From contig JBFMEU010000004.1 of NCBI GenBank assembly GCA_040753155.1, positions 1,056-65,055 on the forward strand: DNA of 64,000 bases. Direction: 5' to 3'. The position numbers were made by a program, and so were the translations under genes. The notes below the pieces were generated by a model, which searched no databases, had not been told where the DNA came from, and worked only from the letters and a program-made list of their open reading frames with translations. Source of the stretch: Bacillota bacterium. GTDB lineage: Bacteria > Bacillota > Desulfotomaculia > Desulfotomaculales > JBFMEU01. Shown here one piece after another: positions 3,975-59,152 of this stretch (positions are counted from its first letter, which is position 1; every line of letters starts with the position of its first letter).

Positions 3975-4109
3975 TATCTCATACTTCGGAAACGCCATGG
4001 ATAAATGATAAATCGCAAGTACGAACAGGTGTGCCTTCTGCCATGCCAGTAAATCTTCAAATGTTTTCGCTGGTTTTCTCATTCTGACTCCTGACTCCTG
4101 AGTAGTTAC
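3975..4109 (-). mobile_element. family-B element copy B1 (truncated; one TIR plus the 5' part of the four-helix-bundle gene)
   Basis: It ends ...attctgactcctgactcctgagtagttac. It encodes MRKPAKTFEDLLAWQKAHLFVLAIYHLSMAFPKYE, the N-terminus typical of 23S rRNA IVS/four-helix-bundle proteins. The far TIR is missing. Confidence 0.8.
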
Positions 4110-4132
4110 CAAGTAATAGAGCAGGCCAAATT

Positions 4133-5659
4133 TCAATCTTTTGCCCGTCGAGCAAGCTCTTTCTCAAACCAGATGGATAATTCGTTTTTAACCCAGGGCG
4201 GCGCCAGTAAATATATTGTGACAGCATAACAACAACATACGGCAAGAATCATAACCAGCGCCATTATGCCTGTGTCGAGGTTGAAAAGGTATAATAATGC
4301 TTTTTTTATAGCAAGGCCACTGACCACAGTAATAAACCCGGCCAGAAAAATCCAGCAGCCTTCAGCCAGAAGGCGCAGATAATTACGCCCGGCCAGATAC
4401 AAAAGCAGCGCCAGCAGCAGGATGTTGACAACCAGGTTGGAAACCGCCACGCCGTTATACCCCAGCAGGGATAAAAGAGCTATTGAGGACAGCCAGTAAG
4501 TAAGGGCGCGTAATGATGTTATCCAGTTAACCAGGCTAAGGCGGGCCCGGGCGTTAAGGCTTACGGCCACCAGCCAGATGAAGCTGTGAAAAGGTATTGC
4601 TGCGGAGAATATTATTAAGGCCGGTACGGCGTCGAGCCATTTTGCGGTGTAGATTATTTCCACCAGCTCCCGGGCTGAGCAGATAATAACTGCCGCCCAC
4701 AGGACATTTACCAGATTAACCCAGGTAAGATAGCGGGTTAGGGCCTTATCCAGTGCCCCTTGCTCATGCTGTAACCTCGAGAACATGGGAAAACTAACTC
4801 TACTGATAATATCCACCAGCATCAGGGGCTTGGTAGCCAGGGAAAGCGCCCAGGTTAACAGCCCCACGGCCGCGGAGCCGGTGAAGATGCCCACCAGGGC
4901 AGGGATAACGGCAGAGGTCAAATGATTGATAATAAGCTGGTATTGATAGGGCAAGCCAAAGCGCAGCAGCTTGCGACCGTCAAACCAGTTGAGGCGGAGG
5001 CGGAACGGCCAGGGGGCGAATACATAGGCCAGGGCGGCCCCTGCCGTGCTTCGCAGCAGGTAGGCCCAGATAAAGCTCCACACCCCGAAGCCTTTGAAGG
5101 CCAGTAATACGGCCAGGCACTGGTACAGAAGCGCTTCAACAGTCTCGATTAAGGCCGGCTTGCCGAAAACCAGCCGGCGTTCCATTTGGACGAAGGATAT
5201 GGAACGCCAGGAGTTTAAAAGCAGGCTGACAGCCATCACCTTGATCATCAGCGGGAAATCAGGCGGCGTCCCGGGATAAAGAGCAGCGATACAGGGGGCC
5301 AGAGCTACCAAGGGGGCCATTAACAAAATAAATAGAATCAACTGCAGGGTAAAGGTTAACTGCAAATCGCCATCATTGATGGAGTCTTTACGCTGGATTA
5401 AGGAAGCCCCCAGTCCCAAATCCCCCAAAAAGCCAAATATTCCGATGATGAATGCCGCTATGGCAAATAAACCGATTTCTTCCGGGCTTAGAATACGGGC
5501 GAGAAATATCCCTCCCGCAAATGTAGCTATTTGAACCAGTACCTGGCGCATAAGAAGAAGGCGGTTTCCCTGAGCCGCGCGGGAGCGAATTTCTTGGGGA
5601 TCGATATTATCCATAGGCTTACCTCGGATTACCCGGCCAGGCGATTTATCTTCGTACAT
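4133..5659 (-). CDS. polysaccharide biosynthesis flippase (MOP/Wzx family)
   Basis: 508 aa with many predicted TM helices and a flippase-like N-terminal region (LLLMRQVLVQIATFAGGIFLARILSPEEIG). Confidence 0.7.
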   Translation of the reverse strand: MYEDKSPGRVIRGKPMDNIDPQEIRSRAAQGNRLLLMRQVLVQIATFAGGIFLARILSPEEIGLFAIAAFIIGIFGFLGDLGLGASLIQRKDSINDGDLQLTFTLQLILFILLMAPLVALAPCIAALYPGTPPDFPLMIKVMAVSLLLNSWRSISFVQMERRLVFGKPALIETVEALLYQCLAVLLAFKGFGVWSFIWAYLLRSTAGAALAYVFAPWPFRLRLNWFDGRKLLRFGLPYQYQLIINHLTSAVIPALVGIFTGSAAVGLLTWALSLATKPLMLVDIISRVSFPMFSRLQHEQGALDKALTRYLTWVNLVNVLWAAVIICSARELVEIIYTAKWLDAVPALIIFSAAIPFHSFIWLVAVSLNARARLSLVNWITSLRALTYWLSSIALLSLLGYNGVAVSNLVVNILLLALLLYLAGRNYLRLLAEGCWIFLAGFITVVSGLAIKKALLYLFNLDTGIMALVMILAVCCCYAVTIYLLAPPWVKNELSIWFEKELARRAKD

Positions 5660-5860
5660 CGTTCATAACTTTATCGATTTGGCTCAAGTCTCCTGCCAGC
5701 CGGTAAGAGGTATCGCTATAGGCCGGCTGCCTGGTAAGGTTGCCCCCGAACAGCAATCTGGCACCGATAAAGCTGATTCAAGGAATAGAACCAGGTCGTG
5801 GCGGTTAAAGGGAGCGCCGTTTCGAGCCGTAAGGGGAAATCCAAACCAGTAACCAGTAAA

Positions 5861-6772
5861 TCAGCTGCGCAGGTATTCATTATAAATGCGCTCCTCATTT
5901 TTCATTCGCAGCAGGCCTTCAGTATGACTTAGCATATCCATGTCAAGAACTTTACCGGCCTTGTCAATGATCAGGCCGGCCCTTAAGGGCCGCTTGGCCG
6001 CCTGGCCGGCCTCATTGGTTGATACCGGTATGATAAGCAGGGGATTCAAGTTGAAGGCGCCGGCTAGCGCAACTGCAAATTCATACCTGCTTACATTAGC
6101 GGCGCCAGCCAGGTTAAATATCCCCGTATGCCTGTCCAGGGCGAGCTCCCGTGAGGCTTCGGCAAGGTTTGCCACATAGGTGGGATTTCCCATTTGATCA
6201 GCCGGTACCTTTACGCTATGACCACACCTTAGATTGTTAATGGCCCTGTGGGCAAAGTTCTTAACAGGGTATTCCCAGCCATAGACCACGGTAACCCGCA
6301 GTATTAAATAGTTAGTCATCTTCCGGATTATTTCGTCTTCAACTTCTAATTTTTGCAAGCCGTAAACATTGACCGGATTGGGCAGGTCATTTTCGGTGTA
6401 AGGCCCATTTTCCCCGTCAAAAACATAATCGGAGGAGTAATATACCAGCTTAATACCGGTCCCGGTCAAGGCGCTGATAACATTGCATGGCCCCTTAACA
6501 TTGATTGCCGCTGAGTCCCCGGGGTGCCGCTCGCACCAGTCCACATGGGGCATGGCCGCGGGAAGATAGATTACATCCGGCCGCATGTTCGCGATTAGCC
6601 TTTTAACAGCCTCTGCATCGGTGAAATCCAGGGGTATAAGGCCCGGGCGGCGATTTTTATAATAGGTGCCGGCCGCTTCACTGCCTGTATTTAGCGACAC
6701 CCGGTAGAGATAGCGCCCGATAAGCCCCGAAGCTCCGATAATAAGTTCTTTCATCCGTGTTTCAAGCTCCAA
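5861..6772 (-). CDS. NAD(P)-dependent sugar-nucleotide reductase, RmlD (dTDP-4-dehydrorhamnose reductase)-like
   Basis: 303 aa with an N-terminal Rossmann motif IIGASGLIGRYL, SDR-like YxxxK context, and RmlD-like length. Confidence 0.65.
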   Translation of the reverse strand: MELETRMKELIIGASGLIGRYLYRVSLNTGSEAAGTYYKNRRPGLIPLDFTDAEAVKRLIANMRPDVIYLPAAMPHVDWCERHPGDSAAINVKGPCNVISALTGTGIKLVYYSSDYVFDGENGPYTENDLPNPVNVYGLQKLEVEDEIIRKMTNYLILRVTVVYGWEYPVKNFAHRAINNLRCGHSVKVPADQMGNPTYVANLAEASRELALDRHTGIFNLAGAANVSRYEFAVALAGAFNLNPLLIIPVSTNEAGQAAKRPLRAGLIIDKAGKVLDMDMLSHTEGLLRMKNEERIYNEYLRS

Positions 6773-6981
6773 TCATAGGGAAGGTAATTTTCAAAAGGGT
6801 CCAGGCGAATGATTTCTGCCGGATCATGGGGCAGTGTAGATGCATTGGCAACCAGGGCTGATAGCAGCCTGATTCGTGGACGGCAAGACGTTGCCGGGCA
6901 TAAAAGACATTAAAAAAGGCACAATAATAAATATAGTATGAGCTTTTCAATCTAATGGTTACTTTCTGTTACTAATCAAAA

Positions 6982-7239
6982 TCATATGGAGCAGAATTTG
7001 TCAGGCTGGTCGAGGCTGCCGATTGTTCTTGGGTCTTCACCGTTTCGGCTCTCCAGAGCCAACATGATGTATCGGATGAACACAATGGCAGTATGCGCCA
7101 CCATAGAGTCATAGGAACGCCCCTGAAACTCTTGGGCCAGCCTGAGATAGGACTTGGACATTTTAAAGAAAACTTCGATGTTCCAACGCTTCCCGTAAAT
7201 GCGGATCACTTCTTTGACCGTGGGCACCGACTTGAGCAC
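6982..7239 (-). pseudogene. IS4-family DDE transposase, C-terminal fragment
   Basis: YGKRWNIEVFFKMSK matches the IS4 Y-2-R-3-E-6-K signature. Only about 85 codons remain and there is no upstream catalytic region. Confidence 0.7.
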
Positions 7240-7357
7240 GCAAATGGTGTGAAGATGTTGTTCTAATACCTTTCTGAGTACGCCGGGAGTGGCGGTCTGC
7301 TTGTTGTGGTAAGGTCACACTTTACAGCCCATTAGAATAGAATGCTAAACCGGATTG

Positions 7358-7488
7358 ATCACTGAACCAATCCGCCCTAAGACCCCCGCCTCTGTAGGCG
7401 GCGGGTTTCAAAGGGCGGTTAAGTCCAGTATGGACTCGGCTAACATTCAGAGGGGGTTGAATCACCCTCTGAATGAAGTCTCGTTCAA
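7358..7488 (+). repeat. family-A 131 bp structured repeat, copy A1
   Basis: atcactgaaccaatccgccc...gaagtctcgttcaa, preceded by ttgat. The flanks ccggattg / caatccgg are reverse complements of each other. Confidence 0.9.
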
Positions 7489-7539
7489 ACGCAATCCGGG
7501 CGCAGGTTAAAAATTCGGGGCATGTAAAGGGGAATAAAA

Positions 7540-8877: not shown

Positions 8878-8926
8878 GGGGTACAAAAGCAGGTAATTTA
8901 TGATCATAGGGATCAGAATTTGGTAT

Positions 8927-9044
<118 letters not shown>

Positions 9045-9136
9045 TTTGGTATAGCCCCGGATATAAATTGGTTTTATTTGGTTTTAACTGCTCCTTGATT
9101 TTTTTGGCCTGCCGTGTTACAATTACCGATGCAAAT

Positions 9137-9211
9137 GCGGGTGTAGCTCAATGGTAGAGCATCAGCTTCCCAAGCTGAGGGTTGAGGGTTCGATCCCCTT
9201 CACCCGCTCCA
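9137..9211 (+). tRNA. tRNA-Gly (anticodon CCC), CCA encoded
   Basis: A cloverleaf can be drawn by hand: acceptor gcgggtg/cacccgc, anticodon arm tcagc-ttCCCaa-gctga, T-loop ttcgatc. Confidence 0.9.
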
Positions 9212-9345
9212 ATAACAATGCAAGGCTTTCCCGATGGGGAAGGCCCTTTTTATGCCTATCTTGCTGCCGGAGAGAGCAGCCGGTTTTCCATTGAAGTGGT
9301 AACTTGTAATAAAACCCCCGAATTGGGCATGGTAATTTTCCAGGG

Positions 9346-9374
9346 TTGCCAGGGGATAAACATAGGCTTATAAT
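9346..9374 (+). promoter_or_regulatory. sigma-A type promoter candidate for the SCIFF operon
   Basis: TTGCCA, 17 nt spacer, TATAAT, about 35 nt upstream of the SCIFF start. Confidence 0.5.
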
Positions 9375-9407
9375 TTAAGAAACAACTGAAGGGAGACGGT
9401 TAAATAA

Positions 9408-9560: not shown

Positions 9561-9564
9561 GCCG

Positions 9565-10970: not shown

Positions 10971-11148
10971 ATCTAGCGGTACTGAATGTGCAAATGGGAG
11001 AAAATAGCCAAGCAAACCGGAATATAATAGATGTAGGGCGCCATTTTCAACAGCTGAGACCGGTTGGCGGCCGGGTCGAGTTTATGCTATAATTTGGTCA
11101 GGCTTCAACATGAAGCTGCCAATTTCTACTTATTGTGGCACGTTATTC

Positions 11149-11279
11149 ATCACTGAACTAATCCGCCCTAAGACCCCCGCCTCTGTAGGCGGCGGGTTTC
11201 AAAGGGCGGTTAAGTCCAGTATGGACTCGGCTAACATTCAGAGGGGGTTGAATCCCCCTCTGAATGAAGTCTCGTTCAA
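11149..11279 (+). repeat. family-A repeat, copy A2
   Basis: Full-length copy preceded by ttcat. It sits between a TATAAT-containing candidate promoter and the M23 peptidase gene. Confidence 0.9.
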
Positions 11280-16328: not shown

Positions 16329-16528
<200 letters not shown>

Positions 16529-16627: not shown

Positions 16628-17632
16628 ATGCAGGAAAATACGGACCGGCTGGCCCGGGAGGTGCTGCGCCGTTACCGTATCGAACCGGATTGGATACGAC
16701 TGGTTCAGGGCGGCGGTATTAAAACCGTCTGGCAAGTTGCCGCCGGAAGCCGGTCTCTTTGTCTTAAGCGGCTCCGTCATACCCGGGACAGGGCTCTTTT
16801 TTCAGTGGGAGCCCAGGCGTATATGGCCGGTAAAGGGGCGGCGGTGAGTCCGGTACTGCTTCTCCCGGGTGGTGATTTGATGGTTGAACACGAGGGGTAT
16901 AATTATGTCCTCTACCAGTGGTTCAAAGGCCGCGGCCTGAATTTGTCCCGCAAAGAGGATTTGGCCCGGGGCGTAAGGGGTTTGGCGGCCTTTCACCGGG
17001 ATTCCGCCGGTTACAACCCTCCCCCCGGCGCCCGGGTTTCATCAAAACTAGGCAGGTTGGGGAACTACTACGCCTCGGTAACCAAACGTTTGCTGCAGTG
17101 GCAGGAGCAGGCGCTGGAGCTGGGACAAAACAGTTTAGCCCGGGCCTACCTGGGAGAAGTTGAGGCAGCCCTGGAAATGGCCGGCCGGGCTATGACGTTG
17201 TTGGATCAGTCAATTTACAGTTCCTGGAGCGACCAGTTTGCCGGCGACGCGGGTCTTTGTCATCAAGATTTTGGGGATGGCAATGCGCTCCTTGTTGATA
17301 ACAAGCTGCACATCCTGGACCTGGACGGGGTAACCTTTGATTTGCCTGTCCGGGATTTGCGCAAGCTGCTCTTAAAGCAGATGTCCTCCAGGGGTAAATG
17401 GGACGAAGCATTGCTGCAGGATACTTTAAGTTGGTATAGTGAGATTTATCCTCTTAATCCCTCACAAATTCAGGTTTTGTTGATAGATTTGTTCTTTCCT
17501 CACGAGCTGCACGACAGTGCCAAGAACTATTTTAAAAAGGGCAAAAGTATAAAAGCCGCTGAAATACACCGGGCCGGAGGGGCTCTGCGCCGCAAGAAGG
17601 AATTCCTGGGCAATTATTTATCACTGAACTAA
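16628..17632 (+). CDS. CotS-family spore coat protein kinase-like protein
   Basis: 334 aa with an HQDFGDGN catalytic-loop motif and an aminoglycoside-phosphotransferase-like fold. The last codons SLN-stop lie inside repeat A4. Confidence 0.75.
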   Translation: MQENTDRLAREVLRRYRIEPDWIRLVQGGGIKTVWQVAAGSRSLCLKRLRHTRDRALFSVGAQAYMAGKGAAVSPVLLLPGGDLMVEHEGYNYVLYQWFKGRGLNLSRKEDLARGVRGLAAFHRDSAGYNPPPGARVSSKLGRLGNYYASVTKRLLQWQEQALELGQNSLARAYLGEVEAALEMAGRAMTLLDQSIYSSWSDQFAGDAGLCHQDFGDGNALLVDNKLHILDLDGVTFDLPVRDLRKLLLKQMSSRGKWDEALLQDTLSWYSEIYPLNPSQIQVLLIDLFFPHELHDSAKNYFKKGKSIKAAEIHRAGGALRRKKEFLGNYLSLN

Positions 17633-17750
17633 TCCGCCCTAAGACCCCCGCCTCTGTAGGCGGCGGGTTTCAAAGGGCGGTTAAGTCCAGTATGGACTCG
17701 GCTAACATTCAGAGGGGGTTGAATCCCCCTCTGAATGAAGTCTCGTTCAA
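17620..17750 (+). repeat. family-A repeat, copy A4
   Basis: Full-length copy preceded by tttat. It bridges two cotS-like genes. Confidence 0.9.
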
Positions 17751-22425: not shown

Positions 22426-22842
22426 GTGAAGACGGTGACCCCGGAAGTAATTATAACTGTTACCAAGGAGTATTTGGCAACACAGCCGGACGTGGCTGTG
22501 GCCTATATTTTTGGTTCAGTCGCCCGGGGACGCATGTGGGCTCACAGTGACGTTGATGTTGCCGTGATCTTTACCCCGGAAGTGGGGGATAAGCCGGCCC
22601 GGTTTGATCGGCGTCTTGAGTTGGAAATGGCGCTCGGAGACCTGGTGCACAAGAATGTGCAAGTGGTCGATTTTGAAGCGGCCCCGGTGCTACTGCGCTA
22701 TCAGATCCGAAAACACGGCCGGGTGATCGCAGATAAGGATCCGCCACGCCGCGTCAGGCTTGAAGCGGCCGCCATCGGTGAGTACCTTGATTTTCAATCC
22801 ATACGCCAATTCTGCACCGCGGCGAAATTAAGAAGGTTGTAA
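22426..22842 (+). CDS. mntA: type VII TA antitoxin, MntA-type nucleotidyltransferase
   Basis: 138 aa with YIFGSVARG...DVDVAV NTase motifs, immediately upstream of a HepT-like gene. Confidence 0.8.
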   Translation: MKTVTPEVIITVTKEYLATQPDVAVAYIFGSVARGRMWAHSDVDVAVIFTPEVGDKPARFDRRLELEMALGDLVHKNVQVVDFEAAPVLLRYQIRKHGRVIADKDPPRRVRLEAAAIGEYLDFQSIRQFCTAAKLRRL

Positions 22843-22844
22843 GC

Positions 22845-23264
22845 ATGGTTGATCGTGACTTCATCCAGCGAAAACTTGATCGGTTGGTCGAGTATATAAC
22901 CGACCTCGAGGAGCAGCGGCATATCACTGTGGCGGATTGGGAAGCCAACAAGATGCTGCGCAATCACCTGGAGCGCACACTGCAAAAAACAGTGGAGAGT
23001 TGCCTGGACATTGGAAAGCACCTCATCGCCGATCTGAACCTGCGCACGCCGGAAGATTATAAAGACATAATTGTGATCCTGACTGAGGCTGGAATTCTAC
23101 CACGGGAAAAACTGAGCAAATTCAAGAAAATGGCGCAGTTTCGCAACGTAATCGTCCATGATTATGAGAAGATTGATCCGCACGTAATCCTGGATATTCT
23201 ACGCAAAGATCTGGATGACCTGCGACTCTTTGCGCGGGCCGTCCGAGACTGGATCGGTCCTTGA
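22845..23264 (+). CDS. hepT: type VII TA toxin, HepT (DUF86) RNase
   Basis: 139 aa with the RxxxxH motif (FRNVIVHDY). It starts 3 nt after mntA. Confidence 0.8.
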   Translation: MVDRDFIQRKLDRLVEYITDLEEQRHITVADWEANKMLRNHLERTLQKTVESCLDIGKHLIADLNLRTPEDYKDIIVILTEAGILPREKLSKFKKMAQFRNVIVHDYEKIDPHVILDILRKDLDDLRLFARAVRDWIGP

Positions 23265-28108: not shown

Positions 28109-28138
28109 AGGGTTAAAACCCCGCCTGAACCAAGTCTT
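28109..28138 (-). repeat. family-C left-end fragment
   Basis: The reverse complement reads gaagacttggttcaggcggggttttaaccc and is preceded by tataaa, as in copy C1. It abuts the stop of the giant gene. Confidence 0.65.
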
Positions 28139-28921
28139 CTTTATAACCCTGCAAATACGTAAAGGTCCCCGAGTTTGTGGGTAAAGCTTGATTTGGCAGC
28201 CACTTCCTATGGAAAAGTAGAATTGAGTTTTGTTAGAATAGGTTAGATAGGGGGCATTAGATTTTGGAAGTAAACGAAAAAATACAATTAAAGCAGAAGG
28301 AATAATTTAAAACGCCACGAATATTTTCTAAAGGCATCCGTATCATTATGATCCTTTGCCCGTCAGTTTGGTGTCCTTGGTAGACAGCCCTGGCAGCGGA
28401 AAAATGGAGAGGGGAAAATTTTTACGTTCAGGGTTGTTAGCAATCACATATATTTATTAATTCCAAAGGAGGTATGAAGCAAGCAGTCACATCCGATGAT
28501 GCGTCGCAAAGACACGTTGTGAAAGTCGGGCGCGAAGGTTAGAACAACCAGGCGGCGGGTAACACCCCCTTCCGGGCAGAACGTACGGTTTATAGGCCGA
28601 CGGCGGGATTTCGCAAGAAAGACCACCCGGTACATAAGCGAAAGCTTATGGCTGAGCAGTTGAATCCTGTGACACTGCCTCTCGTTAGTCGACGGGAGAG
28701 AAATCTAGATAAATCTGATTTGTTTAGATTTCAGAAACCAGGTATGGAATAACCAGCAAAAACAGTCCGTTGTTTGATTGGATGACAGACTATAGTGGAC
28801 ATGCCGTGCCAAGTGCAGCCGTGCCGGCTGCCGGAGCTTGCTTCCCGGGGCTCCTGCCGGGGCCGGGAGTCGGGCTGTAATGATAAAAGGCGTCCTAGTT
28901 AACAAAAAGGAGGTATTGCTA

Positions 28922-32070: not shown

Positions 32071-32697
32071 ATGAAAAAACCGCAGAGTTCAGATGCGTTT
32101 ATTGCTGAGCAGGTTAATATTTTAAAGGAAAACCCCGAATGCGCCAACGCCCAGTACAATCTGGGGGTAAACTTGATGGAGCAGGGCCGGCTTGAAGAGG
32201 CCATCCCATTTTTTGAAGAGGCTATAAGCAATAGCGGCCGGATGTTTGAGGGTTGTGTCAACCTGGGCTACATCTACTTCAAGCTGGGCGAACTGGACAG
32301 GGTTGTGGAATATAATCAAAAGGCGGTGGAAATAGAGCCGCGGTATGCCCGGGGCTACGCCAACCTGGGTTTTGCCTGCCTGCAGCTGGAGCGAACCGAT
32401 GAGGCCATCGAGTTCCTGGAAAAGGCCATCGAGCTAAATCCGGAAATGGCCCAGGCCTGGAGCAATCTGCTCAATGCCTATCTTCAGAAAGAGGATATTG
32501 CCAGGGCCATTGAGATTGGCGCCAAGCTGGTGGAAAACGCCCCGGAGTTTTCTCTGGCCCATAATAATCTTGCCTTTGCCTACTATGTGAATGAAGAATA
32601 CGACAAGGCCATCAAGCATGTTAACCGGGCCAGGGAGTTGGGCTTTCCGGTCCACCCCCGGTTCCTGGAGCAACTGGCGCCTTACCGGGAACAATGA
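32071..32697 (+). CDS. TPR repeat protein
   Basis: 208 aa containing five or more TPR units (AQYNLGVNLMEQGRLEEAIPFFEEAI...). Confidence 0.65.
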   Translation: MKKPQSSDAFIAEQVNILKENPECANAQYNLGVNLMEQGRLEEAIPFFEEAISNSGRMFEGCVNLGYIYFKLGELDRVVEYNQKAVEIEPRYARGYANLGFACLQLERTDEAIEFLEKAIELNPEMAQAWSNLLNAYLQKEDIARAIEIGAKLVENAPEFSLAHNNLAFAYYVNEEYDKAIKHVNRARELGFPVHPRFLEQLAPYREQ

Positions 32698-33332
32698 TTA
32701 ATAACTATAAGGACTTATTTGAGGCGTATGAGTCGCTGGTGGCAAGGGCGGATCAGGCATTTGAAAAACTTCAGGGCGAGTATGGCGATTGCGTTAAGTG
32801 CAGGGTCCAGTGCGCTGACTGCTGCACCTCTATATTTGGTCTGTTTCCCATTGAGTCGGTCTACCTGAATCATCACTTCAACCAGCTGGATGATGTGGTG
32901 AAGCAGGAGGTACTGGCAAGGGGGGACCTGTACGAGCAAAATTTGCTAAAACTGCAGAATAAGATGCGGGAGCTTGATCCCGGCCAAAGGGACGAGGCCC
33001 TGGCCAGGGAAAGGGTTGCCTGCCCCCTCTTAAATAATGAGCAAAAGTGCGCCATTTATCAACACCGGCCCATAACCTGCCGGGTGTACGGCATCCCCAC
33101 CGTGATTAGCGGCATGGTTCACTCCTGCGGCAAGGCCGGCTTTGCAAAGGGCCGGTCCTATCCCGCCTTTAATCTGGACAAGATCTACCGGGAGCTGTAC
33201 CACCTGTCAGGGGCGCTGCTGGAGGCTTCGGGCCACCCCGGCCCGGCGGAGCAGGCAGGCCTGCTGCACTCTGTAATCAGGGCAATCAAAACCCCGGCCG
33301 AGGATTTGCTCAAAGACATTAACAGTGACTAA
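32694..33332 (+). CDS. YkgJ-family cysteine-cluster (putative Fe-S/zinc) protein
   Basis: CVKCRVQCADCC and CAIYQHRPITCRVYG motifs. Its start overlaps the TPR gene stop. Confidence 0.65.
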   Translation: MINNYKDLFEAYESLVARADQAFEKLQGEYGDCVKCRVQCADCCTSIFGLFPIESVYLNHHFNQLDDVVKQEVLARGDLYEQNLLKLQNKMRELDPGQRDEALARERVACPLLNNEQKCAIYQHRPITCRVYGIPTVISGMVHSCGKAGFAKGRSYPAFNLDKIYRELYHLSGALLEASGHPGPAEQAGLLHSVIRAIKTPAEDLLKDINSD

Positions 33333-33444
33333 GCATTACAGGGCAGGGTATGGGTAATTGACGTTCTCCCCATGGCTAAATGCCAGGGGATTCGAAAATC
33401 CGTGAATTAAGTGCTATAGTGTAACCATATGTAAGGGAATATCG

Positions 33445-33705
33445 CCTGCAGCAGGCACCTATCCCTTGGGCTCAGAGCTGCGTGCCGAAAAGACTTGCGG
33501 CTGGTCGTTAAGCGGGGCTACAGGCCCTGCAAATTGTGCGTGCCAGGTTATTCGTGTTTAAAAACGTTACCTCACATTCAGAATTGCGCTTGTGTTTTAT
33601 TACTGTTACCTGCACGTTTCGGGCCTTAGCCCCGCTAAACTCCGTCGCCGAGTCTTTTGGCGGCACTCCGCTAAATCGCCTGCAGGGATAGGATACCTGC
33701 TGCTT
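33445..33705. repeat. family-E foldback element (about 260 bp imperfect long hairpin)
   Basis: Left arm cctgcagcaggcacctatccc...ttaagcggggcta pairs with right arm tagccccgctaaa...gggataggatacctgctgc. The centre is AT-rich. The left arm recurs at 53410-53520. It lies between convergent genes. Confidence 0.7.
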
Positions 33706-33745
33706 GTGCAGCATTGACCTTTGAATGCCGGCAATAATGAGCAAT

Positions 33746-34849
33746 CTAGATGTAAAGCCTGGCCAGGGCTTCTTTGGCCAGTTGGCCTACAGTTTTTTCT
33801 TCCAGGCAGCCGTCCTGATAAACTTTTACCGGATGGGGGTCATCCCCCAACTTTTCCAGATAGCCACTGGCCTCCGGCACCCCCAGATAACCAAACAGCA
33901 GCGCTGCATAGCCCCTGACTTCGGGATTGGGGTCGCTCAGGCAGGGTATAAAGCGAAATATCGATTGCCGGATCAGGTGCGGCCTGGCTCTGGCCGCCCG
34001 GCCAATGGCTTTGAGGATCAAGGGCCTTAGCTTTTCGTCCGCCAGGAACTGGTAAAGCCTGGGGGTGTAGCTGATAAACAGGTCCGGCGCGTTGCCGATG
34101 ATTTCCCCGATGGTATCAATGGCCCCCCAGCTGGAAGCTGCGCTATCGGAAACAGAATTAAGCAGCCTTTGCAGCAAATTGGAGATGAACCCGGGGTCTC
34201 TTTGGGCGATGACTGCGGACACCTGCCCCAGAATATCAGCCGTGCGCAGGCGAAGTTGCATGTCGCTGGAGTAGATCAGCCGCTGCAGGTCCCGGATGAT
34301 CCTTTTATCCTCGCCGGCTATGGCCAGCAGGGGCGGCAGCCGATAGGCGGTTACCATTTTTTCGACCTCGGCCCTGGTAAAGGATTTGGGGCCGGTTTCC
34401 GTCGGGGTTGAAGCTGGCTGTACCGGAGTTGAGCGCATAATTTTTCTTTTCACACCGCCGGTGGTGACTTCCTGGATATCGTCTTCCATCCGTATAAAGT
34501 ACAGGGCTCCGCGCACCCTGCGTCCCCGGAAAGAGCCTCCGGGCACTAGCACATGGCTTTCCAGGTCGTAATGTTCCACCAGCTTTTCCAGGTAATCCTC
34601 ACCCGGGTACAGGCTCCAGGCTAAATCCCAGTCCATGTTGCAGGCAAAAACCAGGGCTTCTATGAAGGCCGAGCCCAGATTATGTCCGGTAACATCGCAT
34701 GCGAATACGGCACCGCAATCACAAATACCCACAGGCATTTCTTCCAGCCTGCGGGTTTCCAATTCCTGCGGCCTGTTGACCGCCAGGCCGCAAAAGGGGC
34801 ATTCCGGGCGGCGCGTAACTTCCTTGGGCCTAAATCCTCTGGCATTCAT
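33746..34849 (-). CDS. HEAT-repeat protein with an N-terminal Cys-rich segment
   Basis: 367 aa with N-terminal CPFCG...CDCG and C-terminal HEAT/PBS-lyase-like repeats (LSDPNPEVRGYAALLFGYLG). Confidence 0.5.
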   Translation of the reverse strand: MNARGFRPKEVTRRPECPFCGLAVNRPQELETRRLEEMPVGICDCGAVFACDVTGHNLGSAFIEALVFACNMDWDLAWSLYPGEDYLEKLVEHYDLESHVLVPGGSFRGRRVRGALYFIRMEDDIQEVTTGGVKRKIMRSTPVQPASTPTETGPKSFTRAEVEKMVTAYRLPPLLAIAGEDKRIIRDLQRLIYSSDMQLRLRTADILGQVSAVIAQRDPGFISNLLQRLLNSVSDSAASSWGAIDTIGEIIGNAPDLFISYTPRLYQFLADEKLRPLILKAIGRAARARPHLIRQSIFRFIPCLSDPNPEVRGYAALLFGYLGVPEASGYLEKLGDDPHPVKVYQDGCLEEKTVGQLAKEALARLYI

Positions 34850-35178: not shown

Positions 35179-35240
35179 GTAACTATTCAGGTATTCAGTT
35201 TCTCATTCTGACTACTGACTCCTGACTCCTGAGTAGTTAC
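35179..35240 (-). mobile_element. family-B element copy B4 (62 bp minimal form: the two TIRs only)
   Basis: gtaactattcaggtattcag-tttctc-attctgactactgactcctgactcctgagtagttac. A perfect 8 bp direct repeat cgccgtta lies on both sides. Confidence 0.85.
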
Positions 35241-35624
35241 CGCCGTTATTATATCAGTATAGTATGTGCGTGTCAAAGACTCAACCCTGCTGGCCCGGGA
35301 GAAACCCATTTACCTCCTGTGGACATGCCGTAAAAAATCAAACTATAATTAGATTGTCCACCTGGTTGCTCAAAACCACTATTGTGAAAATTTTATTATA
35401 AAAAAAAGCATATTTTTAGAAGGATTTGTTTGAAGCGCAACGAAAGATATATAGGGTTCTCTGTAGGCCTGTAAAAAAGCGCGCTTTATTCAGTCCCTTG
35501 ACGCGCGTTTTTTATGCTCTGACTCCGGGTGCCTGCTATGACAGGCCGGTTGCCTTCATCCGCCATTACAAATCAATCGCCGCCTTTGCAGCGCCGCTAG
35601 TCCGGTCCGAAACAAGCCGGGGTG

Positions 35625-40658: not shown

Positions 40659-40793
40659 GTAACTACTCAGGAGTCAGTAGTCAGGAGTCAGTAGTCAGAA
40701 TGAGAAAACCAGTGAAAACATTTGAAGATTTACTGGTATGGCAGAAGGTGCACCTGTTTGTACTTGCGGTTTATCGTTTATCCATGGCGTTTC
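40659..40793 (+). mobile_element. family-B element copy B5 (left TIR plus gene 5' part; right end lost)
   Basis: gtaactactcaggagtcagtagtcagg... The remnant ORF 40700-40813 reads MRKPVKTFEDLLVWQKVHLFVLAVYRLSMAF and then diverges. Confidence 0.8.
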
Positions 40794-43610: not shown

Positions 43611-43787
43611 GTAACTACTCAGGAGTCAGGAGTCAGAAGTCAGGAGTCAGAATGAGAAAACCAGCAAAACATTTGAGATTTACTGATATGGCAGAAGGCG
43701 CACTTGTTCGTACTTGCGGTTTATCGTTTATCCATGGCGTTTCCGAAGTATGAGATATACGGTCCATTCTGACTCCTGAGTAGTTAC
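43611..43787 (+). mobile_element. family-B element copy B6 (both TIRs plus frameshifted gene 5' part)
   Basis: gtaactactcaggagtcaggagtcagaagtcaggagtcagaatgagaaaacc...attctgactcctgagtagttac. The flanking direct repeats are gagctcaat / gagttcaat (8 of 9). Confidence 0.85.
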
Positions 43788-43861: not shown

Positions 43862-44129
43862 TGAAGTCATTAAAGCACGGTTATGACGGGGAATAAGGGT
43901 TTAGGAGAATCTCTCAGCGAGCCGGGGTTGGTGCGAGCCTGGCAGAGGAATAAACCTGCCGCCACCCCTGAACTGCAGACCGAAACCCGCGGTAAACGCC
44001 GGGGGGATTAAGTCGGGCCGGCCGCCGCCGTTACCGGCTCCGAGAGGACTGTGCCTTGGCAGGTACAGTCAAGCAGGGTGGTACCGCGAGACATGGTCTC
44101 GTCCCTTAGGGGGCGGGACCTTTTATTTT
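43862..44129 (+). promoter_or_regulatory. T-box riboswitch leader
   Basis: Stem I elements (agcgagccggggttggtgcgagcc), the T-box sequence agcagGGTGGTACCGCG at 44071-44088, and terminator ggtctcgtccc/ggggcgggacc plus ttttatttt. I cannot assign the specifier codon confidently; the loop reads ggaauaaaccu. Confidence 0.8.
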
Positions 44130-44233
44130 GTAACTACTCAGGAGTCAGGAGTCAGGAGTCAGAATGAGAAAACCAGCGAAAACATTTGAAGATTTACTGG
44201 TATGGCAGAAGGCGCACCTGTTTGTATTTGCTG

Positions 44234-44358
44234 TTTATCTTCGCACAGCCTGTAAGACCCCGCCCTCGCATAAGGAAAGGGGACACACCTGCTGAAGCTT
44301 GGGTATTTCTCTGGGGACAGGAATGTCCCCAACGTATGGGTTAAAACCCCGCCTGAAC
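44234..44358 (-). repeat. family-C repeat nested in B8 (partly deleted)
   Basis: tttatcttcgcacagcctgtaagaccccgccctcgcataagg...gggttaaaaccccgcctgaac matches the reverse complement of 52086-52309, with an internal deletion between two ggaatgtccccaac repeats. Confidence 0.75.
44279..44330 (-). repeat. family-D hairpin module (split form)
   Basis: Reverse complement of ggggacattcctgtcccc...aggtgtgtcccc. Confidence 0.6.
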
Positions 44359-44422
44359 GTGACTCCTGACTCCTGAATTCTGAATACCTGAGTAGCTACA
44401 AGAAAGGAGTGATTACGGGATT

Positions 44423-44902
44423 ATGAAGGAAATACTTGAGCTGTTGGAATTCGATGCCAGGCTGACCGCCAATGAGATTGCCGTTATGCTGAACATGGAC
44501 CTGGCGGAAGTCCGGCGCTCCATCAAAGAATTGGAAGACAATAAAACCATTTTAAAGTACATTACCCTGGTGAACTGGGAAAAGGTCGGCGAAGAAAAGG
44601 TGAGCGCCTTTATCGAGGTGCGTACCACCCCCCAGCGGGATGTGGGGTTTGACGCCGTGGCCGAGCGAATCTACCGCTTTCCGGAGGTGCGCAGCGTCAG
44701 GTTGATGAGCGGGGTCTATGACCTGGCCGTGTTTATTGAAGGGCGGACGATGAAGGAAGTGTCCCACTTTGTATCCACCAAACTGGCCACCATTGAGGGT
44801 GTGGTCAGCACCACCACCCACTTTGTTTTAAAGACTTACAAGCAAGACGGCGTCATACTGGATGACGCAGAGGAAGATAGAAGGCTGGTGATATCGCCAT
44901 GA
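44423..44902 (+). CDS. Lrp/AsnC family transcriptional regulator
   Basis: 159 aa with an N-terminal HTH (LELLEFDARLTANEIAVMLNMDLAEVRRSIKELE) and a C-terminal RAM domain. Confidence 0.8.
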   Translation: MKEILELLEFDARLTANEIAVMLNMDLAEVRRSIKELEDNKTILKYITLVNWEKVGEEKVSAFIEVRTTPQRDVGFDAVAERIYRFPEVRSVRLMSGVYDLAVFIEGRTMKEVSHFVSTKLATIEGVVSTTTHFVLKTYKQDGVILDDAEEDRRLVISP

Positions 44903-47951: not shown

Positions 47952-47984
47952 CCCTGTCTGTGGTCCAGCCTGCCGGGAAACCTG

Positions 47985-48115
47985 TTGAACGAGACTTCAT
48001 TCAGAGGGGGATTCAACCCCCTCTGAATGTTAGCCGAGTCCATACTGGACTTAACCGCCCTTTGAAACCCGCCGCCTACAGAGGCGGGGGTCTTAGGGCG
48101 GATTAGTTCAGTGAT
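47985..48115 (-). repeat. family-A repeat, copy A6 (inverted orientation)
   Basis: Full-length reverse complement (ttgaacgagacttcattcagaggggg...ggattagttcagtgat), preceded in element orientation by ttaat. Confidence 0.9.
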
Positions 48116-51952: not shown

Positions 51953-52122
51953 ACCGACCACACTTTACTTCAGCTTTGGTATGGCCAAAGCTTTTGTTAC
52001 TATTCAGGTATTCAGAATTCAGGAGTCAGGATTCAGAATGGACCGTAGATCTCATACTTCGGAAACGCCATAGATAAACGATAAAGAAGACTTGGTTCAG
52101 GTGGGGTTTTAACCCATACGTT

Positions 52123-52153
52123 GGGGACATTCCTCCGAAGGAGGTGTGTCCCC
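52123..52153 (+). repeat. family-D hairpin module
   Basis: ggggacattcctcc-gaa-ggaggtgtgtcccc replaces catctg in the basal C hairpin loop. Confidence 0.7.
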
Positions 52154-52212
52154 TGACCGCTAAACCTTAGTCGCACTTATTTCGAGCTTACAGCCTGTTA
52201 ATCCCATTAGTT

Positions 52213-52264
52213 GGGGACATTCCTGTCCCCAGAGAAATACCCAAGCTTCAGCAGGTGTGTCCCC
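52213..52264 (+). repeat. family-D hairpin module (split/extended form)
   Basis: ggggacattcctgtcccc-agagaaatacccaagcttcagc-aggtgtgtcccc lies inside the long C hairpin. Confidence 0.6.
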
Positions 52265-52445
52265 TTTCCTTATGCGAGGGCGGGGTCTTACAGGCTGTGC
52301 GAAGATAAACCGCAAGTACGAACAGGTGCGCCTTCTGCCATACCAGTAAATCTTCAAATGTTTTCGCTGGTTTTCTCATTCTGACTCCTGACTTCTGACT
52401 CCTGACTCCTGAGTAGTTACAAGTTTTTTTTGAGGAGGGGTTTGC

Positions 52446-53520: not shown

Positions 53521-53583
53521 TTGAGAACCAGTGATTTTTCCCAATATATGTATTTTAGCCGTTGCTTGAGAGGGGGCATCTTC

Positions 53584-54372: not shown

Positions 54373-54513
54373 TATTATTTGGCCGGCCTGAAGGGATTTC
54401 TTTCCATAGCAGCGAATGCATATCATTATTATTCAGGTATTCAGAATTCAGGAGTCAGAATTCAGAATAACCGTATATCTCATACTTCGGAAACGCCATG
54501 GATAAACGATAAA

Positions 54514-54637
54514 GAAGACTTGGTTCAGGTGTGGTTTTAACCCATACGTTGGGGACATTCCTCCGAAGGAGGTGTGTCCCCTGACCGCTAAACCTTAGTC
54601 ACACTTATTTCGAGCTTACAGGCTGTGCGAAGATAAA
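54514..54637 (+). repeat. family-C repeat nested in B10 (124 bp form; long hairpin collapsed)
   Basis: gaagacttggttcaggtgtgg...cgagcttaca|ggctgtgcgaagataaa. The deletion lies between cttaca repeats. Confidence 0.75.
54551..54581 (+). repeat. family-D hairpin module
   Basis: Identical to 52123-52153. Confidence 0.7.
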
Positions 54638-54782
54638 CCGCAAGTACAAACAGGTGCGCCTTCTGCCATACCAGTAAATCTTTAAATGTTTTTGCTGGTT
54701 TTCTAATTCTGACTCCTGATTTAAAAAAGGATTTTTCTCTTATAACGGCGTATGTATATTAATCATAAATTTATAAGCAGCC

Positions 54783-54853
54783 CTGCCGGCGCGGAGTATT
54801 GGAGTGAGCGGCGCCAACGCCGCGCCTTAACACAGGTATTCCTGAATGCATAC
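54783..54853 (+). repeat. family-F 71 nt conserved motif, copy F2
   Basis: ctgccggcgcggagtattggagtgagcgg...ccttaacacaggt...ctgaatgcatac. It overlaps the track start codon at 54846. Confidence 0.6.
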
Positions 54854-55565: not shown

Positions 55566-55673
55566 CTGGAAAAACCCCCCTCCGGGGGGTATAATTATTT
55601 TAGTGAGATTTTGGTATACTTTTTACAGGGCCTGCCAGACAAATGTAAATTTCAAGAGGAGGTCAGCAAAATT

Positions 55674-56528
55674 ATGGCACTTGTTCCCATTGACGTATTG
55701 CTAAAGGAGGCTGCGTCCGGCGGCTATGCCGTGGGCGCCTTTAACTGCAACAACATGGAGATTGTCCAGGCCATTGCCGCCGCTGCCCGGGAAGAGCGGG
55801 CGCCGGTAATTATGCAGGCCAGCCAGGGGGCCATCAAATATGCCGGCATAGACTATATCGTGGCTATGGTGCGGGTGGCGGCCGGGGAGGCCGGGGTTCC
55901 GGTGGCGCTGCACCTTGACCACGGCACCAGCTTTGCCCAAGTGATGCAGTGCATAAGGTCCGGCTTCAGCTCGGTAATGATCGACGGATCAAAACATGCC
56001 CTGGAGGAAAATATAGCCTTGACCAACCTGGTGCTGCAGGCTGCCCGGGCGGTGGGGGTTTCTGTTGAGGCCGAGCTGGGTAAAATAGGCGGTACCGAGG
56101 ATGATATTGTGGTTTCCGAGCGGGAGGCGCTGTTCACCGATCCAGAGGAGGCCCGCTATTTTGTTGATCGCACCGGGGTGGACGCCCTGGCGGTGGCCAT
56201 CGGTACGGCCCATGGTCAGTATAAGGGGGTCCCCCGGCTGGATTTTGACCGGCTGCGGAAAATCAGGTCCCTCATCGATACCCCCATCGTGCTCCACGGC
56301 TCCTCCGGCGTACCCGACGACGCCATCCGGGAGGCCATTGAGATCGGGGTGAGTAAAATCAACATTGACACCAACATCCGGGAGGCCTTTACCGATCGCA
56401 CCCGGCAGGTTGTGGCTGACCAGCCCGGTGAAATCGACCCCCGCAAGATACTGGGCCCGGCCCGGGAGGCGGCCACCGAAATCATCAGGGAAAAAATTCG
56501 CCTCTTTGGCAGCTCCAACAGGGTCTAA
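55674..56528 (+). CDS. fba: class II fructose-1,6-bisphosphate aldolase
   Basis: [24 protein letters not shown], the LHLDHG motif, and a GAGGAGG RBS. The track start at 55611 is an extension. Confidence 0.9.
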
Positions 56529-56562
56529 GCCAGGAATAAAAAGAAATTGGAGGGTTGAGAGC

Positions 56563-57207
56563 ATGAGGCTTTTTATCGACACAGCCAATATTGATGAAAT
56601 AAAAAGCGCCTATGAGCTGGGTGTAATCAGCGGTGTTACCACCAATCCATCCTTGATCGCCAGGGAGGGGCGGGACTTTGTCCAGGTGGTCAGGGAAATA
56701 ACCGCCATCGTTGACGGGCCTGTCAGCGCCGAGGTGATAAGCCCGGACGCGGCGGGTATGCTGGCCGAGGCCAGGGAGCTGGCGGCAGTTCACCCCAATA
56801 TCGTGATTAAAATTCCCATGACCGCCGAAGGCCTCAAGGCCACCAAAATATGCGCCCGGGAGGGCATCAAGACCAATGTCACCCTGGTGTTTTCCGCCAA
56901 CCAGGCCCTGCTGGCCGCCCTGGCCGGGGCTACTTATGTCAGTCCCTTTGTCGGTCGCCTGGACGACATCGGCTACGAGGGCATGGATTTGATTGCCGAT
57001 ATTATTACCATTTTCGACAACTTCGGCTATGACGCGCAGGTTATTTCCGCCAGCATTCGTCATCCCATGCATGTAACCGAATCGGCTAAAGCCGGGGCGC
57101 ATATCGCAACGGTGCCCTATAAGGTGCTGATGCAAATGGTTAAGCACCCCCTGACTGATCTGGGGGTGGAAAAGTTCCTGGCCGACTGGAACCGGGCGCC
57201 CAAGTAA
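56563..57207 (+). CDS. tal: transaldolase / fructose-6-phosphate aldolase (short type)
   Basis: [14 protein letters not shown]...GVTTNPSL, 214 aa, with a GGAGGG RBS. The track ORF from 56365 overlaps fba in another frame. Confidence 0.9.
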
Positions 57208-57514
57208 CGCCTTGACTTTAGTGACAAAGCAGAGATATACTTAATTAGTCCCTCGATTTTTTACTCCTACCGGTAATAAGTATCCCCGCAGCTTATTTAC
57301 TGGCCTGCCTTATCCGTGTCAATGCTGTGGCCGCAGTATTGGCAGCCATGTTTTTCAAGTTTATGGTTCCAGTATTTTATGCTTTAAACATAATGACCGG
57401 CATGGCCCTTTTGGGCCGGTGGCCGGGACAGTGGTTATGGAGCAAATAGCAAGCCTGAAGTGGCCGGAGTACCTGTCTTATTTATATAAATAATAATCAT
57501 CCACTGAAGGAGGG

Positions 57515-58792
57515 ATGCCCTTGAATTACTCCGATCTGGAAGGTAAAACCATGGTTGAACTTTACCGTTTGGCCAGGGAAATGGACCTTATAGGTTATTC
57601 CCGCCTCCGCAAGAAGGAGTTGATTTTTGAATTAATCAAGACCCAGACGGAGAAAAACGGGCTTATCTACGCCAAGGGAGTGCTGGAAATACTCCCGGAC
57701 GGGTACGGCTTTCTGCGGCCGTTTCAGTATTTACCCAGTCATGATGACATTTATGTATCTTCCTCCCAAATTAGGCGTTTTGACCTGCGCACCGGTGATC
57801 TGGTGGCCGGGCTGGTTCGTGGCCCCAAGGATAATGAGCGCTATTTCGCCCTCCTGCGGGTGGAGCAGGTTAACGGTCAGGATGCTGAACTGGCCGCCGA
57901 GCGCCTGCACTTTGACGGCCTCACACCCCTCTATCCTCAAGAAAGAATAAAACTGGAAACCTCAGCCGACCGGCTGTCCACCAGGATCATTGATCTCATT
58001 GCCCCCCTGGGCAAGGGGCAAAGGGGTCTGATTGTAGCCCCCCCCAAAGCCGGCAAAACTGTTTTACTCAAGGAAATAGCCAACAGCATCAGCCACAACT
58101 ATCCTGATGCTTACCTGATGGTGCTGCTGATCGACGAGCGGCCTGAGGAAGTCACCGACATTGAGCGCTCTGTGCAGGGTGAGGTGGTCAGCTCCACCTT
58201 CGATGAGCCGCCGGAAAACCACGTCAAGGTGGCGGACATGGTGCTGGAGCGGGCCAAGCGCCTGGTGGAGCACAAGCAGGATGTGGTCATCCTGATGGAC
58301 AGTATCACCCGCCTGGCCCGGGCGCACAACCTGGTGGTGCCTCCCAGCGGGCGCACCCTGAGCGGCGGTGTTGACCCGGCGGCCCTGCACCGCCCGAAAC
58401 GGTTTTTCGGGGCGGCCAGGAACCTGGAGGAGGGCGGCAGCCTGACCATATTGGCCACCGCTCTGGTGGAGACCGGCAGCCGCATGGATGACGTTATTTT
58501 TGAAGAATTCAAGGGAACCGGCAATATGGAGCTGATTCTCGACCGCCGGCTGGCCGACAAGCGTGTTTTCCCGGCCCTGGACGTGCTTCGCTCGGGAACC
58601 CGCAAAGAGGAGCTCTTACTAAATAAAGAAGAGTTGGAGTGGATGTGGCAGCTGCGCAAGGGTTCCGCCGGCATGGCGCCCTGGGAGGTAATGGACCTGC
58701 TGCTGGACCGGATGAAAAGAAGCAAGTCCAATGCCGAGCTGATGCAGAATATGCGTCTGCAGCACCGCCGGCCGACCATATCCACCAAGTAA
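57515..58792 (+). CDS. rho: transcription termination factor Rho
   Basis: N-terminal Rho_N domain ([27 protein letters not shown]), an RNA-binding domain, and a Walker A motif PPKAGKT. The TTG at 57521 is an alternative start. Confidence 0.95.
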
Positions 58793-58811
58793 TAGCATCG
58801 TAAAATAAGTA

Positions 58812-58850
58812 GGCGGGCTGCTTTTCCCCGGGAGAAGCAGCCCGCCACTT
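58812..58850 (+). terminator. rho-independent terminator after rho
   Basis: ggcgggctgcttttc-cccggg-agaagcagcccgcc followed by acttt. Confidence 0.65.
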
Positions 58851-58874
58851 TTACTGTGAAAATAGTCCTGATTA

Positions 58875-59043
58875 GTAACTACTCAGGAGTCAGGAGTCAG
58901 TAGTCAGGAGTCAGAATGAGTCTTGGATACGGTGATATTTACGAAACAAAACTTCTCTTGTAAGAGGTTGGTAAATTGCTGGAAGCATATTCTCGGGGCA
59001 TTCTGAATTCTGACTCCTGAATTCTGAATACCTGAATAGTAAC
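58875..59043 (+). mobile_element. family-B element copy B7 (both TIRs plus the 3' end of the four-helix-bundle gene)
   Basis: The left TIR runs up to atgag, then LGYGDIYETKLLL-EVGKLLEAYSRG-like C-terminal coding remnant, then the right TIR. A perfect 8 bp direct repeat cctgatta lies on both sides. Confidence 0.85.
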
Positions 59044-59152
59044 CCTGATTATAATACTGGATATGGTGTGCAGCTCCAGGTTGCTAATTTCAAGAATAAG
59101 GCTTATAGGTAAACTTCGCTAAACACTACAACCTCCAGCATTTTTGGGGCAA

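Follow-up and report, generated by a model that had tools for sequence, protein, structure and literature searches.

The 64,000-nucleotide stretch of contig JBFMEU010000004.1 analysed here (the window) carries ten loci that share the termini GTAACTACTCAGG and CCTGAATAGTAAC, arrays of heptamer repeats and fragments of a gene for a four-helix-bundle (4HB) protein. In the layout of this family, an outer 13-bp end is followed by a heptamer run (units AGTCAGG, AGTCAGA and ATTCAGA), an ATG located eight bases 3′ of a GGAG, pieces of the open reading frame (ORF), a mirror-image heptamer run and the inverted end. The motif GTAACTACTCAGG, allowing up to two mismatches, has 18 matches in the window, where shuffles predict 0.66, and its mirror CCTGAATAGTAAC has 17 against 0.94; these matches sit at the ten loci for which a first-pass annotation of this DNA had proposed shared terminal inverted repeats (TIRs). 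A BLAST comparison of the copies with the window shows a single repeat family of ten members, 92–98% identical to one another, and reveals no further family copies in the window. All ten lie outside rRNA and are intergenic; Rfam reports only a T-box and tRNA in the window and no family at the elements.

Flanking direct repeats of 8–9 bp, read as target-site duplications (TSDs), border six of the seven complete copies (three perfect 8-mers, two pairs matching at 7/8 and one at 8/9), and direct reading returned all six as first annotated. The chance of at most one mismatch in an 8-mer pair is ~4e-4. The seventh complete copy, a chimera at 44130–44399, has no flanking duplication when its flanks are read directly, and the other 3 of the 10 copies (3975–4109, 40659–40793, 54424–54719) have one end or both truncated or degenerate. 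The window copies are internally deleted derivatives only, miniature transposable elements of the inverted-repeat kind (MITEs), of 62–425 bp. An intact 4HB ORF occurs in none of the ten, nor in two extra copies found in a sister strain, and no transposase domain was detected in the window genes or on neighbouring contigs, confirming the initial impression that the window holds neither an intact copy nor a transposase.

One identical internal deletion breakpoint is shared by the copies at 3975, 16329, 43611, 51996 and 54424 and by both extra sister-strain copies. This common deletion type joins ATG...IYGP to the 3′ heptamers, as in copy 3 (copies are numbered along the window; Table 1). Because the junction is identical in five window copies, an already-deleted derivative must have been amplified, and the deletions were not independent. 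The history first proposed, transposition followed by MITE-like internal deletion, therefore stands for transposition with TSDs, seen at three filled and empty sites, but not for independent deletions. The 3′ coding end that had been attributed to the seventh copy is instead kept by the tenth locus (58875–59043).

Exact-protein look-ups retrieved a 100% identical contig (L068) and sister-strain contigs (L069 and L078; 98–99.7% identity). Three insertion polymorphisms, each with an 8-bp duplication, separate the window from the sister strain. The sister strain precisely lacks copy 8 (51996–52420), with the target aagctttt present once, and has copies at two target sites that are empty in the window. 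At the site in the last codons of an ORF, the sister-strain copy has its left terminus at L069 1011 and is flanked on either side by AAGGATAT. Strain-specific filled and empty sites at this level of identity show that transposition was recent, and these three comparisons, with their 8-bp duplications, supply the empty sites that the first-pass annotation had suggested seeking in related strains. The ORF that ends at window 33332 has a Pfam CxxCxxCC hit, and the ~430 bp 3′ of it (33323–33754) are swapped for other sequence in the sister strain.

Intact relatives of the cargo gene score above curated thresholds for PF05635 (121.6 bits, cut-off 33.8, E = 2e-35) and TIGR02436 (113.8 bits, cut-off 24, E = 4e-33). 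The N-terminal fragment MRKPAKTFEDLLVWQKAHLFVLAVYRLSMAFPKYE from the window, which falls below the cut-offs because it is truncated to 40 aa, scores 25.5 bits (E = 1.6e-5) and 17.8 bits with the two models, respectively. Models of Avd, a protein of diversity-generating retroelements, remain sub-threshold (NF033474, 20–26 bits against a cut-off of 80; PF22296, 20.7 bits against 40; phrog_3206), and the nearest solved structure is the XCC0516 pentamer 2GSC. The cargo is thus, as first recognised, the four-helix-bundle protein of 23S rRNA intervening sequences (IVSs), with weak similarity to Avd, and not a transposase. A PADLOC search gave no match, leaving a defence role unsupported.

Purifying selection acts strongly on the 4HB protein. 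Some 8000 database proteins match at E < 1e-10, the best 120 of these being 78–96% identical. Across seven ORFs from different phyla, pN is 0.13–0.27 and pS 0.51–0.96 per site; dN/dS is 0.07–0.19 where computable, the synonymous differences being mostly saturated. Such low ratios across phyla indicate that the protein is functional and old. The 19-base ends stay identical while the ORFs diverge across phyla, which fits constraint by a transposase and possibly also by an RNA stem.

The exact 19-mer terminus GTAACTACTCAGGAGTCAG occurs at at least 67 loci in species-representative genomes and has no match in viral contigs. Bacillota, Desulfobacterota, Verrucomicrobiota, Acetothermia, Thermotogae, Nitrospirae, Deinococcota, Bacteroidota and Nostoc are among the matches listed, most of which adjoin fragments of the same 4HB ORF. 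Thirty inverted TIR pairs were found elsewhere, with 8-bp flanks that are perfect in eight and carry one mismatch in six (14/30 against ~0.01 expected), so the flanking duplications proposed for the window recur in other genomes. The search for a full-length master copy, suggested at the outset, yielded intact units of 430–626 bp in other phyla and none in the window. These have the order TIR, heptamers, 121-aa 4HB ORF, heptamers, TIR, without a transposase, and the last codons and stop of the ORF fall in the 3′ heptamers. One of them (L039) encodes a protein almost identical to the window fragments. Its 5′ heptamer array (L039 2682–2905) is expanded to ~30 units, and the range of 2 to ~30 between copies suggests that array length varies through replication slippage. 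At the other extreme, elements of 49–146 bp, with or without foreign cores, are still flanked by duplications (L035, L058). Together with window copies 2 and 4, these TIR-only or foreign-core copies with TSDs show that the ends alone suffice and that the 4HB gene is dispensable in cis.

Older copies fixed in operons and on Nostoc plasmids have a decayed outer end and have kept the heptamers. Intact 4HB cassettes are also fixed in essential operons, between pheS and pheT (L089 4001–4384) and between an aminotransferase gene and mcsA-mcsB-clpC (L079 4001–4366); such operon-borne cassettes occur in many samples, with a spacer of just 25–64 nt per side.

The ends of the element match those of one group of insertion sequences (ISs). 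ISDge4 of Deinococcus geothermalis, an experimentally transposing member of the ISBst12 group with a single 449-aa transposase, has the TIRs GTGACTACTCAGCA / GTAACTGCTCAGCA and an 8-bp duplication (PMC12898284, 2026). Its published ends and those of the window element agree at 12/14 positions. Identity rises to 12/12 with ISs of Bacillus thuringiensis p142098 (GTAACTACTCAGCTTC/…CTTA, direct repeat TCAAATTG/TCAAATTA) and of Geobacillus, represented by G. kaustophilus pHTA426 (GTAACTATTCAGCCCG / GTATCTATTCAGCCCAG, direct repeat GACGAGTT) and G. thermoleovorans (GTAACTATTCAGCC, direct repeat ATTTTCAT); ISBst12-group ISs of Octadecabacter and Streptomyces have more divergent ends. The matches listed by tblastn with a canonical IS66 TnpC were enterobacterial three-ORF IS66 elements and not the ISBst12 group. 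A profile of eight ISBst12-group transposases retrieved thousands more transposases of that group in metagenomes. In one sample, an identical 498-aa transposase (PF03050 and DUF6444) occupies six different sites (L108–L113). These and related ISs (L114–L123, L194) start with GTAACTACTCAGGCTTAA and end with CAGCCTGAGTAGTTAC, and perfect 8-bp duplications flank four metagenomic insertions, including TGCAAATG, GTTCTTTC, GCAAGATG and CACTTTTG. The element is identical to these metagenomic ISBst12-type ISs at 13/13 terminal positions. The chance of this identity, or of 12/12 to two further Bacillota ISs, is below 1e-7 per comparison. Neither heptamers nor 4HB sequence are present in the fetched ISs. 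Since this interior is not IS-derived, the element is not a classical (type I) deletion-derived MITE.

When transcribed, the TIRs and heptamers are predicted to pair into a stem of ~25–37 bp that would bury the Shine–Dalgarno sequence and start codon. The predicted fold of an intact element has a terminal stem of ~37 bp enclosing both (−165 kcal/mol, z = −8.05), and that of copy 6 has a 25-bp terminal stem (−64.8 kcal/mol, z = −6.2). In the Coxiella burnetii IVS, which occupies 428–444 nt in helix 45 of 23S rRNA, a 28-bp terminal stem is cut by RNase III; this IVS carries an S23p ORF with heptamers (GACAGAT) in tandem just upstream of the ATG, their number differing between strains (PMC4990558). 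Its full sequence (PMC4990558 Table S3) has the layout of the element, without GTAACT and without a duplication. By analogy with Coxiella, from which alone such cleavage is known, the stem of the element may likewise be processed by RNase III.

Metagenomes hold zero matches to a helix-45 5′ flank with the complete IS end (GTAACTAYTCAG) within 30 nt, which indicates that the IS end is not retained in the IVS form. With the heptamer pair CAGGAGTCAG after it instead, this flank occurs at 69 metagenome loci, where a rough chance estimate predicts few. The 3′ 23S flank is present at 57 of the 69, most enclosing 446–465 nt; 49 of 54 ORFs encode 4HB proteins (E down to 6e-43), and the three loci checked with Rfam are bacterial large-subunit rRNA. 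The IVS ends (for example, GCGG followed by ATTCAGGAGTCAGAATTCAG… and …CTGAATTCTGACTCCTGGAT followed by GGTAG) are the MITE ends without their outermost six bases. In local alignments, the metagenomic IVS proteins have a mean identity of 54% to Coxiella S23p compared with 41% to the transposable type, and they form a separate sister subfamily. Taken with the TIR-bounded copies, these loci, among them at least 49 metagenomic 23S rRNA genes with the cassette, and the Coxiella IVS show that a cassette of heptamer hairpin and 4HB gene exists in two settings.

The 13/13 end identity and the 8-bp duplication place the family among non-autonomous ISBst12-group elements, and termini of this group imply that a cognate transposase family exists and that the element is mechanistically an ordinary non-autonomous one. 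We therefore consider it very probable that the ten loci are non-autonomous elements of the ISBst12 group (IS66 family), with a ~430-bp mobile insertion cassette (MIC) as parent and the window copies as its MITE derivatives. An ISBst12-type DDE transposase encoded elsewhere would recognise the 13-bp ends and mobilise the elements in trans in this genome. Insertion would proceed through an 8-bp, occasionally 9-bp, staggered cut of the target, probably by copy-and-paste as reported for ISDge4.

Several observations weigh against this assignment. An ISBst12-type transposase is absent from the 64-kb window and from the ~10 kb that adjoin it in the sister strain, and no transposase adjoins the terminus in any of the 67 genome loci examined, where the neighbours are host genes such as RecJ, ValS, RarA and FdhD. 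The ISs with 13/13 ends are metagenomic, with a G+C content of 42–46%, and do not demonstrably belong to a Desulfotomaculia-like Firmicute. The element interior is not derived from the IS, and simple hitch-hiking does not account for how strongly the 4HB protein is conserved.

This conservation, along with the constant company of heptamers and ORF in both ISBst12-bounded copies and 23S IVSs, lends some weight to an alternative that casts the 4HB protein as an accessory factor encoded by the element. Such a factor would aid or regulate ISBst12 transposition, replacing the TnpA and TnpB that this subgroup lacks, or bind the heptamer hairpin, and the cassette would then act as partner to the IS and not simply as its cargo. 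The relative Avd, to which there are weak hidden Markov model (HMM) matches, is described as a nucleic-acid- and polymerase-binding accessory protein. We nevertheless judge this role unlikely: ORF-less MITEs transposed recently, similarity to IS66 TnpA or TnpB was not detected in a Pfam scan, nothing attests the role directly, and the Coxiella protein is apparently not made in vivo (PMC4990558).

That the element is autonomous, the 4HB protein (perhaps with host factors) catalysing or directing its own transposition, is highly improbable. The intact element does encode the 4HB protein alone, under strong purifying selection across phyla and with no transposase near any copy, and Ralph and McClelland proposed in 1993, as cited in PMC4990558, that the IVS ORF serves mobility. 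However, the 4HB fold (2GSC, 2RLD) has no known nuclease or DDE chemistry, gene-less copies show fresh TSDs while none of the window or extra sister copies has an intact ORF, and the 13-bp ends and 8-bp duplication exactly match a DDE transposase family.

Two further explanations can be set aside as having next to no probability. Weak Avd similarity and the transcription of the element as a hairpin in rRNA contexts might suggest that the copies spread via RNA, reverse-transcribed with the aid of an Avd-like protein in the manner of diversity-generating retroelements, but the Avd scores fall far below their cut-offs (80 and 40 bits), the window contains no reverse transcriptase, template repeat or variable repeat, and precise TIRs with a fixed 8-bp TSD mark a DNA transposase rather than retro-insertion. 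Since several IS families (IS256, ISL3, IS6, IS1595 and others) produce 8-bp duplications and no cognate IS came to light in the window or on neighbouring contigs, another such family could be responsible and the ISBst12 end match coincidental, but the terminal identities of 13/13 and 12/12 (chance < 1e-7 per comparison) oppose this, and the terminal GTAA, a hallmark of the IS66 family, agrees with ISDge4 and with the ISs in L100, L102, L105, L106 and L107.

With trans-mobilisation by an ISBst12-type transposase as the preferred explanation, the two settings of the cassette invite a broader proposal, which we offer tentatively as a possibility. The cassette may be one ancient selfish unit in two vehicles, an ISBst12-bounded form that jumps within genomes and from one to another in many phyla, and the helix-45 IVS. 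The transposable form would be the long-sought means by which ORF-bearing IVSs disperse, each IVS being the cassette stripped of the outer 6 bp at either IS end, and the 4HB protein would act on the hairpin or on transposition and not be passive cargo.

Table 1. Window copies of the 4HB element, target sites empty in the window, and intact units on other contigs
Feature	Position	Strand	Length	Content and flanks
Copy 1	3975–4109	−		5′ TIR (4097–4109), heptamers, 4HB N-terminal coding part; truncated on window-left side, hence TSD unreadable
Copy 2	8927–9044	+	118 bp	Both TIRs, heptamer repeats only in between; perfect 8-bp TSD tttggtat (8919–8926 and 9045–9052)
Copy 3	16329–16528	−	200 bp	MITE, common deletion type; TSD gtgccaag/gtgccaat (7/8)
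Copy 4	35179–35240	−	62 bp	Minimal element: TIRs, heptamers, start codon only; perfect TSD cgccgtta
Copy 5	40659–40793	+		5′ TIR, heptamers, N-terminal coding part; 3′ side truncated
Copy 6	43611–43787	+	177 bp	MITE, common deletion type, directly 3′ of the ypeB stop codon; TSD gagctcaat/gagttcaat (8/9)
Copy 7	44130–44399	+		Chimera: 5′ end, part of a nested second repeat, 3′ heptamers; no TSD
Copy 8	51996–52420	−		Common-type MITE with 218-bp nested repeat (~52086–52303); TSD aagctttt/aagttttt (7/8)
Copy 9	54424–54719	−		Common type, shorter nested repeat (~54514–54631); outer TIR mutated (CATTATTATTCAGG), opposite end without last 8 bases
Copy 10	58875–59043	+		Distinct deletion: start codon fused to C-terminal coding part (LGYGDIYETKLLL.EVGKLLEAYSRGILNSD); perfect 8-bp TSD cctgatta
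Empty target site acccattt	35304–35311			Filled by 200-bp copy in sister strain (L069 2871–3070, flanks acccaatt/acccattt)
Empty target site aaagacat	33313–33320			In last codons of ORF 32694–33332; filled in sister strain
Intact unit	L006 5291–5720		430 bp	Sole ORF, 121–122-aa 4HB
Intact unit	L051 2119–2550		432 bp	Sole ORF, 121–122-aa 4HB
Intact unit	L039 2669–3294		626 bp	~30 heptamers; sole ORF, 121–122-aa 4HB

The window has a G+C content of 54% and encodes YpeB/SleB, DsrAB, DsrC and DsrMK-like proteins together with a T-box leader. The combination of YpeB/SleB, Dsr proteins and T-box points to a spore-forming, sulfate-reducing, Desulfotomaculia-like Firmicute. A cyanobacterial repeat of the STRR/Nezha type was considered for the elements and rejected, as YpeB/SleB, DsrAB/DsrC/DsrMK and the T-box mark a Firmicute host. 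The T-box leader (43874–44109, 94.4 bits) is parted from its downstream operon by copy 7, which is 270 bp long and hairpin-forming; the operon includes an AsnC-type regulator at 44423 and an aminotransferase at 44899. Lying between the two, copy 7 could affect regulation by read-through. Five short-read Logan contigs with ypeB (L070–L074) stop 27–28 bp inside copy 6, at window 43637–43639, and the repeat breaks assemblies of this organism at least there. Two other contigs (L076 and L077) both stop at window 16024, ~300 bp before copy 3.

The repeat nested in the 4HB MITEs is itself dispersed. It forms GGGGACA…TGTCCCC hairpins, lies within three of the elements (copies 8 and 9, and copy 7 at ~44240–44358) at a GATAAA duplication, and has stand-alone copies at 675–801 and 28110–28144. 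Since the nested insertion is the same in copies 8 and 9, the composite as such has been copied. A separate dispersed repeat of ~137 bp occurs at 7354–7488, 11143–11279 and 17614–17750 on the plus strand and at 47982–48115 on the minus strand, with 97–100% identity. Two strong GC-rich hairpins make up its fold (−74.6 kcal/mol, z = −10.1). This repeat has no Rfam family above threshold and shows no obvious TIR or TSD. Unrelated to the elements are an RHS-repeat protein fragment (1032–2711) and a HepT-like ribonuclease gene (22845–23264, in the region 22426–23264), whose small upstream ORF may be an antitoxin partner.

Full-text literature searches found no link of the 4HB gene family or of IVSs to IS66 or ISBst12 elements, and targeted term searches of a 2024 review of prokaryotic MITEs turned up neither IS66 nor passenger genes nor mobile insertion cassettes. 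The first-pass statement that this gene family is undescribed as the core of a TIR- and TSD-bearing element held up in that search, with the qualification that the idea of ORF-bearing IVSs as mobile elements dates from 1990–93, as cited in PMC4990558. What is already known is the mechanism class, a MIC or MITE moved in trans; the novelty lies in the cargo and its conservation across phyla, in the heptamer arrays and in the link to rRNA. ISBst12-type trans-mobilisation offers a testable mechanism for the spread of a gene family that is present in thousands of genomes and famed only for 23S IVSs, and it connects the literature on IVSs with that on IS66 elements and MITEs. In its host here, an uncultured sulfate reducer that forms spores, the cassette is active at present, inserting in operons, gene ends and regulatory leaders and breaking assemblies. 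Its conservation raises the question of why the 4HB protein of a hitch-hiking element is under such strong purifying selection.

Among known systems, Avd of diversity-generating retroelements resembles the cargo as a four-helix-bundle relative with weak HMM similarity, and differs in scores far below the thresholds and in its reverse transcriptase, template repeat and variable repeat partners, which the element does not have. The ORF-bearing helix-45 IVSs (Coxiella burnetii S23p; Leptospira) are closer. They share the size (428–465 nt), the protein family and the heptamers upstream of the ATG, and the terminal inverted repeat of the Coxiella IVS forms an RNase III stem (PMC4990558) like the one predicted for the element. 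Unlike the element, they are without the outer GTAACT, have no TSD and encode a separate protein subfamily, and the window copies are intergenic, not placed in a 23S rRNA helix (9, 25 or 45) as IVSs are.

MICs and MITEs are the class to which the behaviour of the element corresponds, the Bacillus cereus MIC231 being a further example of a mobile insertion cassette. Like the cyanobacterial MITE Nezha, the element is small, TIR-bounded, TSD-flanked and multi-copy, would be moved in trans by a related IS, occupies sites that are filled in one relative and empty in another, and is predicted to form a stable RNA hairpin (PMC3184786). It differs from these in that a single passenger gene is conserved by purifying selection across many phyla, in its subterminal heptamer arrays of 2 to ~30 units, and in a cassette that is also found inside 23S rRNA. 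The ISBst12-group ISs (ISDge4; the ISGka4-family IS on pHTA426) are autonomous, 1.5–1.6 kb long and encode a 450–500-aa DDE transposase (PF03050), whereas the element has no transposase and carries heptamer arrays and a 4HB gene, which occur in no fetched IS. Yet the element and these ISs have in common the terminal 12–13 bp (GTAACTACTCAGG / GTAACTATTCAG), the 8-bp duplication and a stop codon that lies inside the end repeat.

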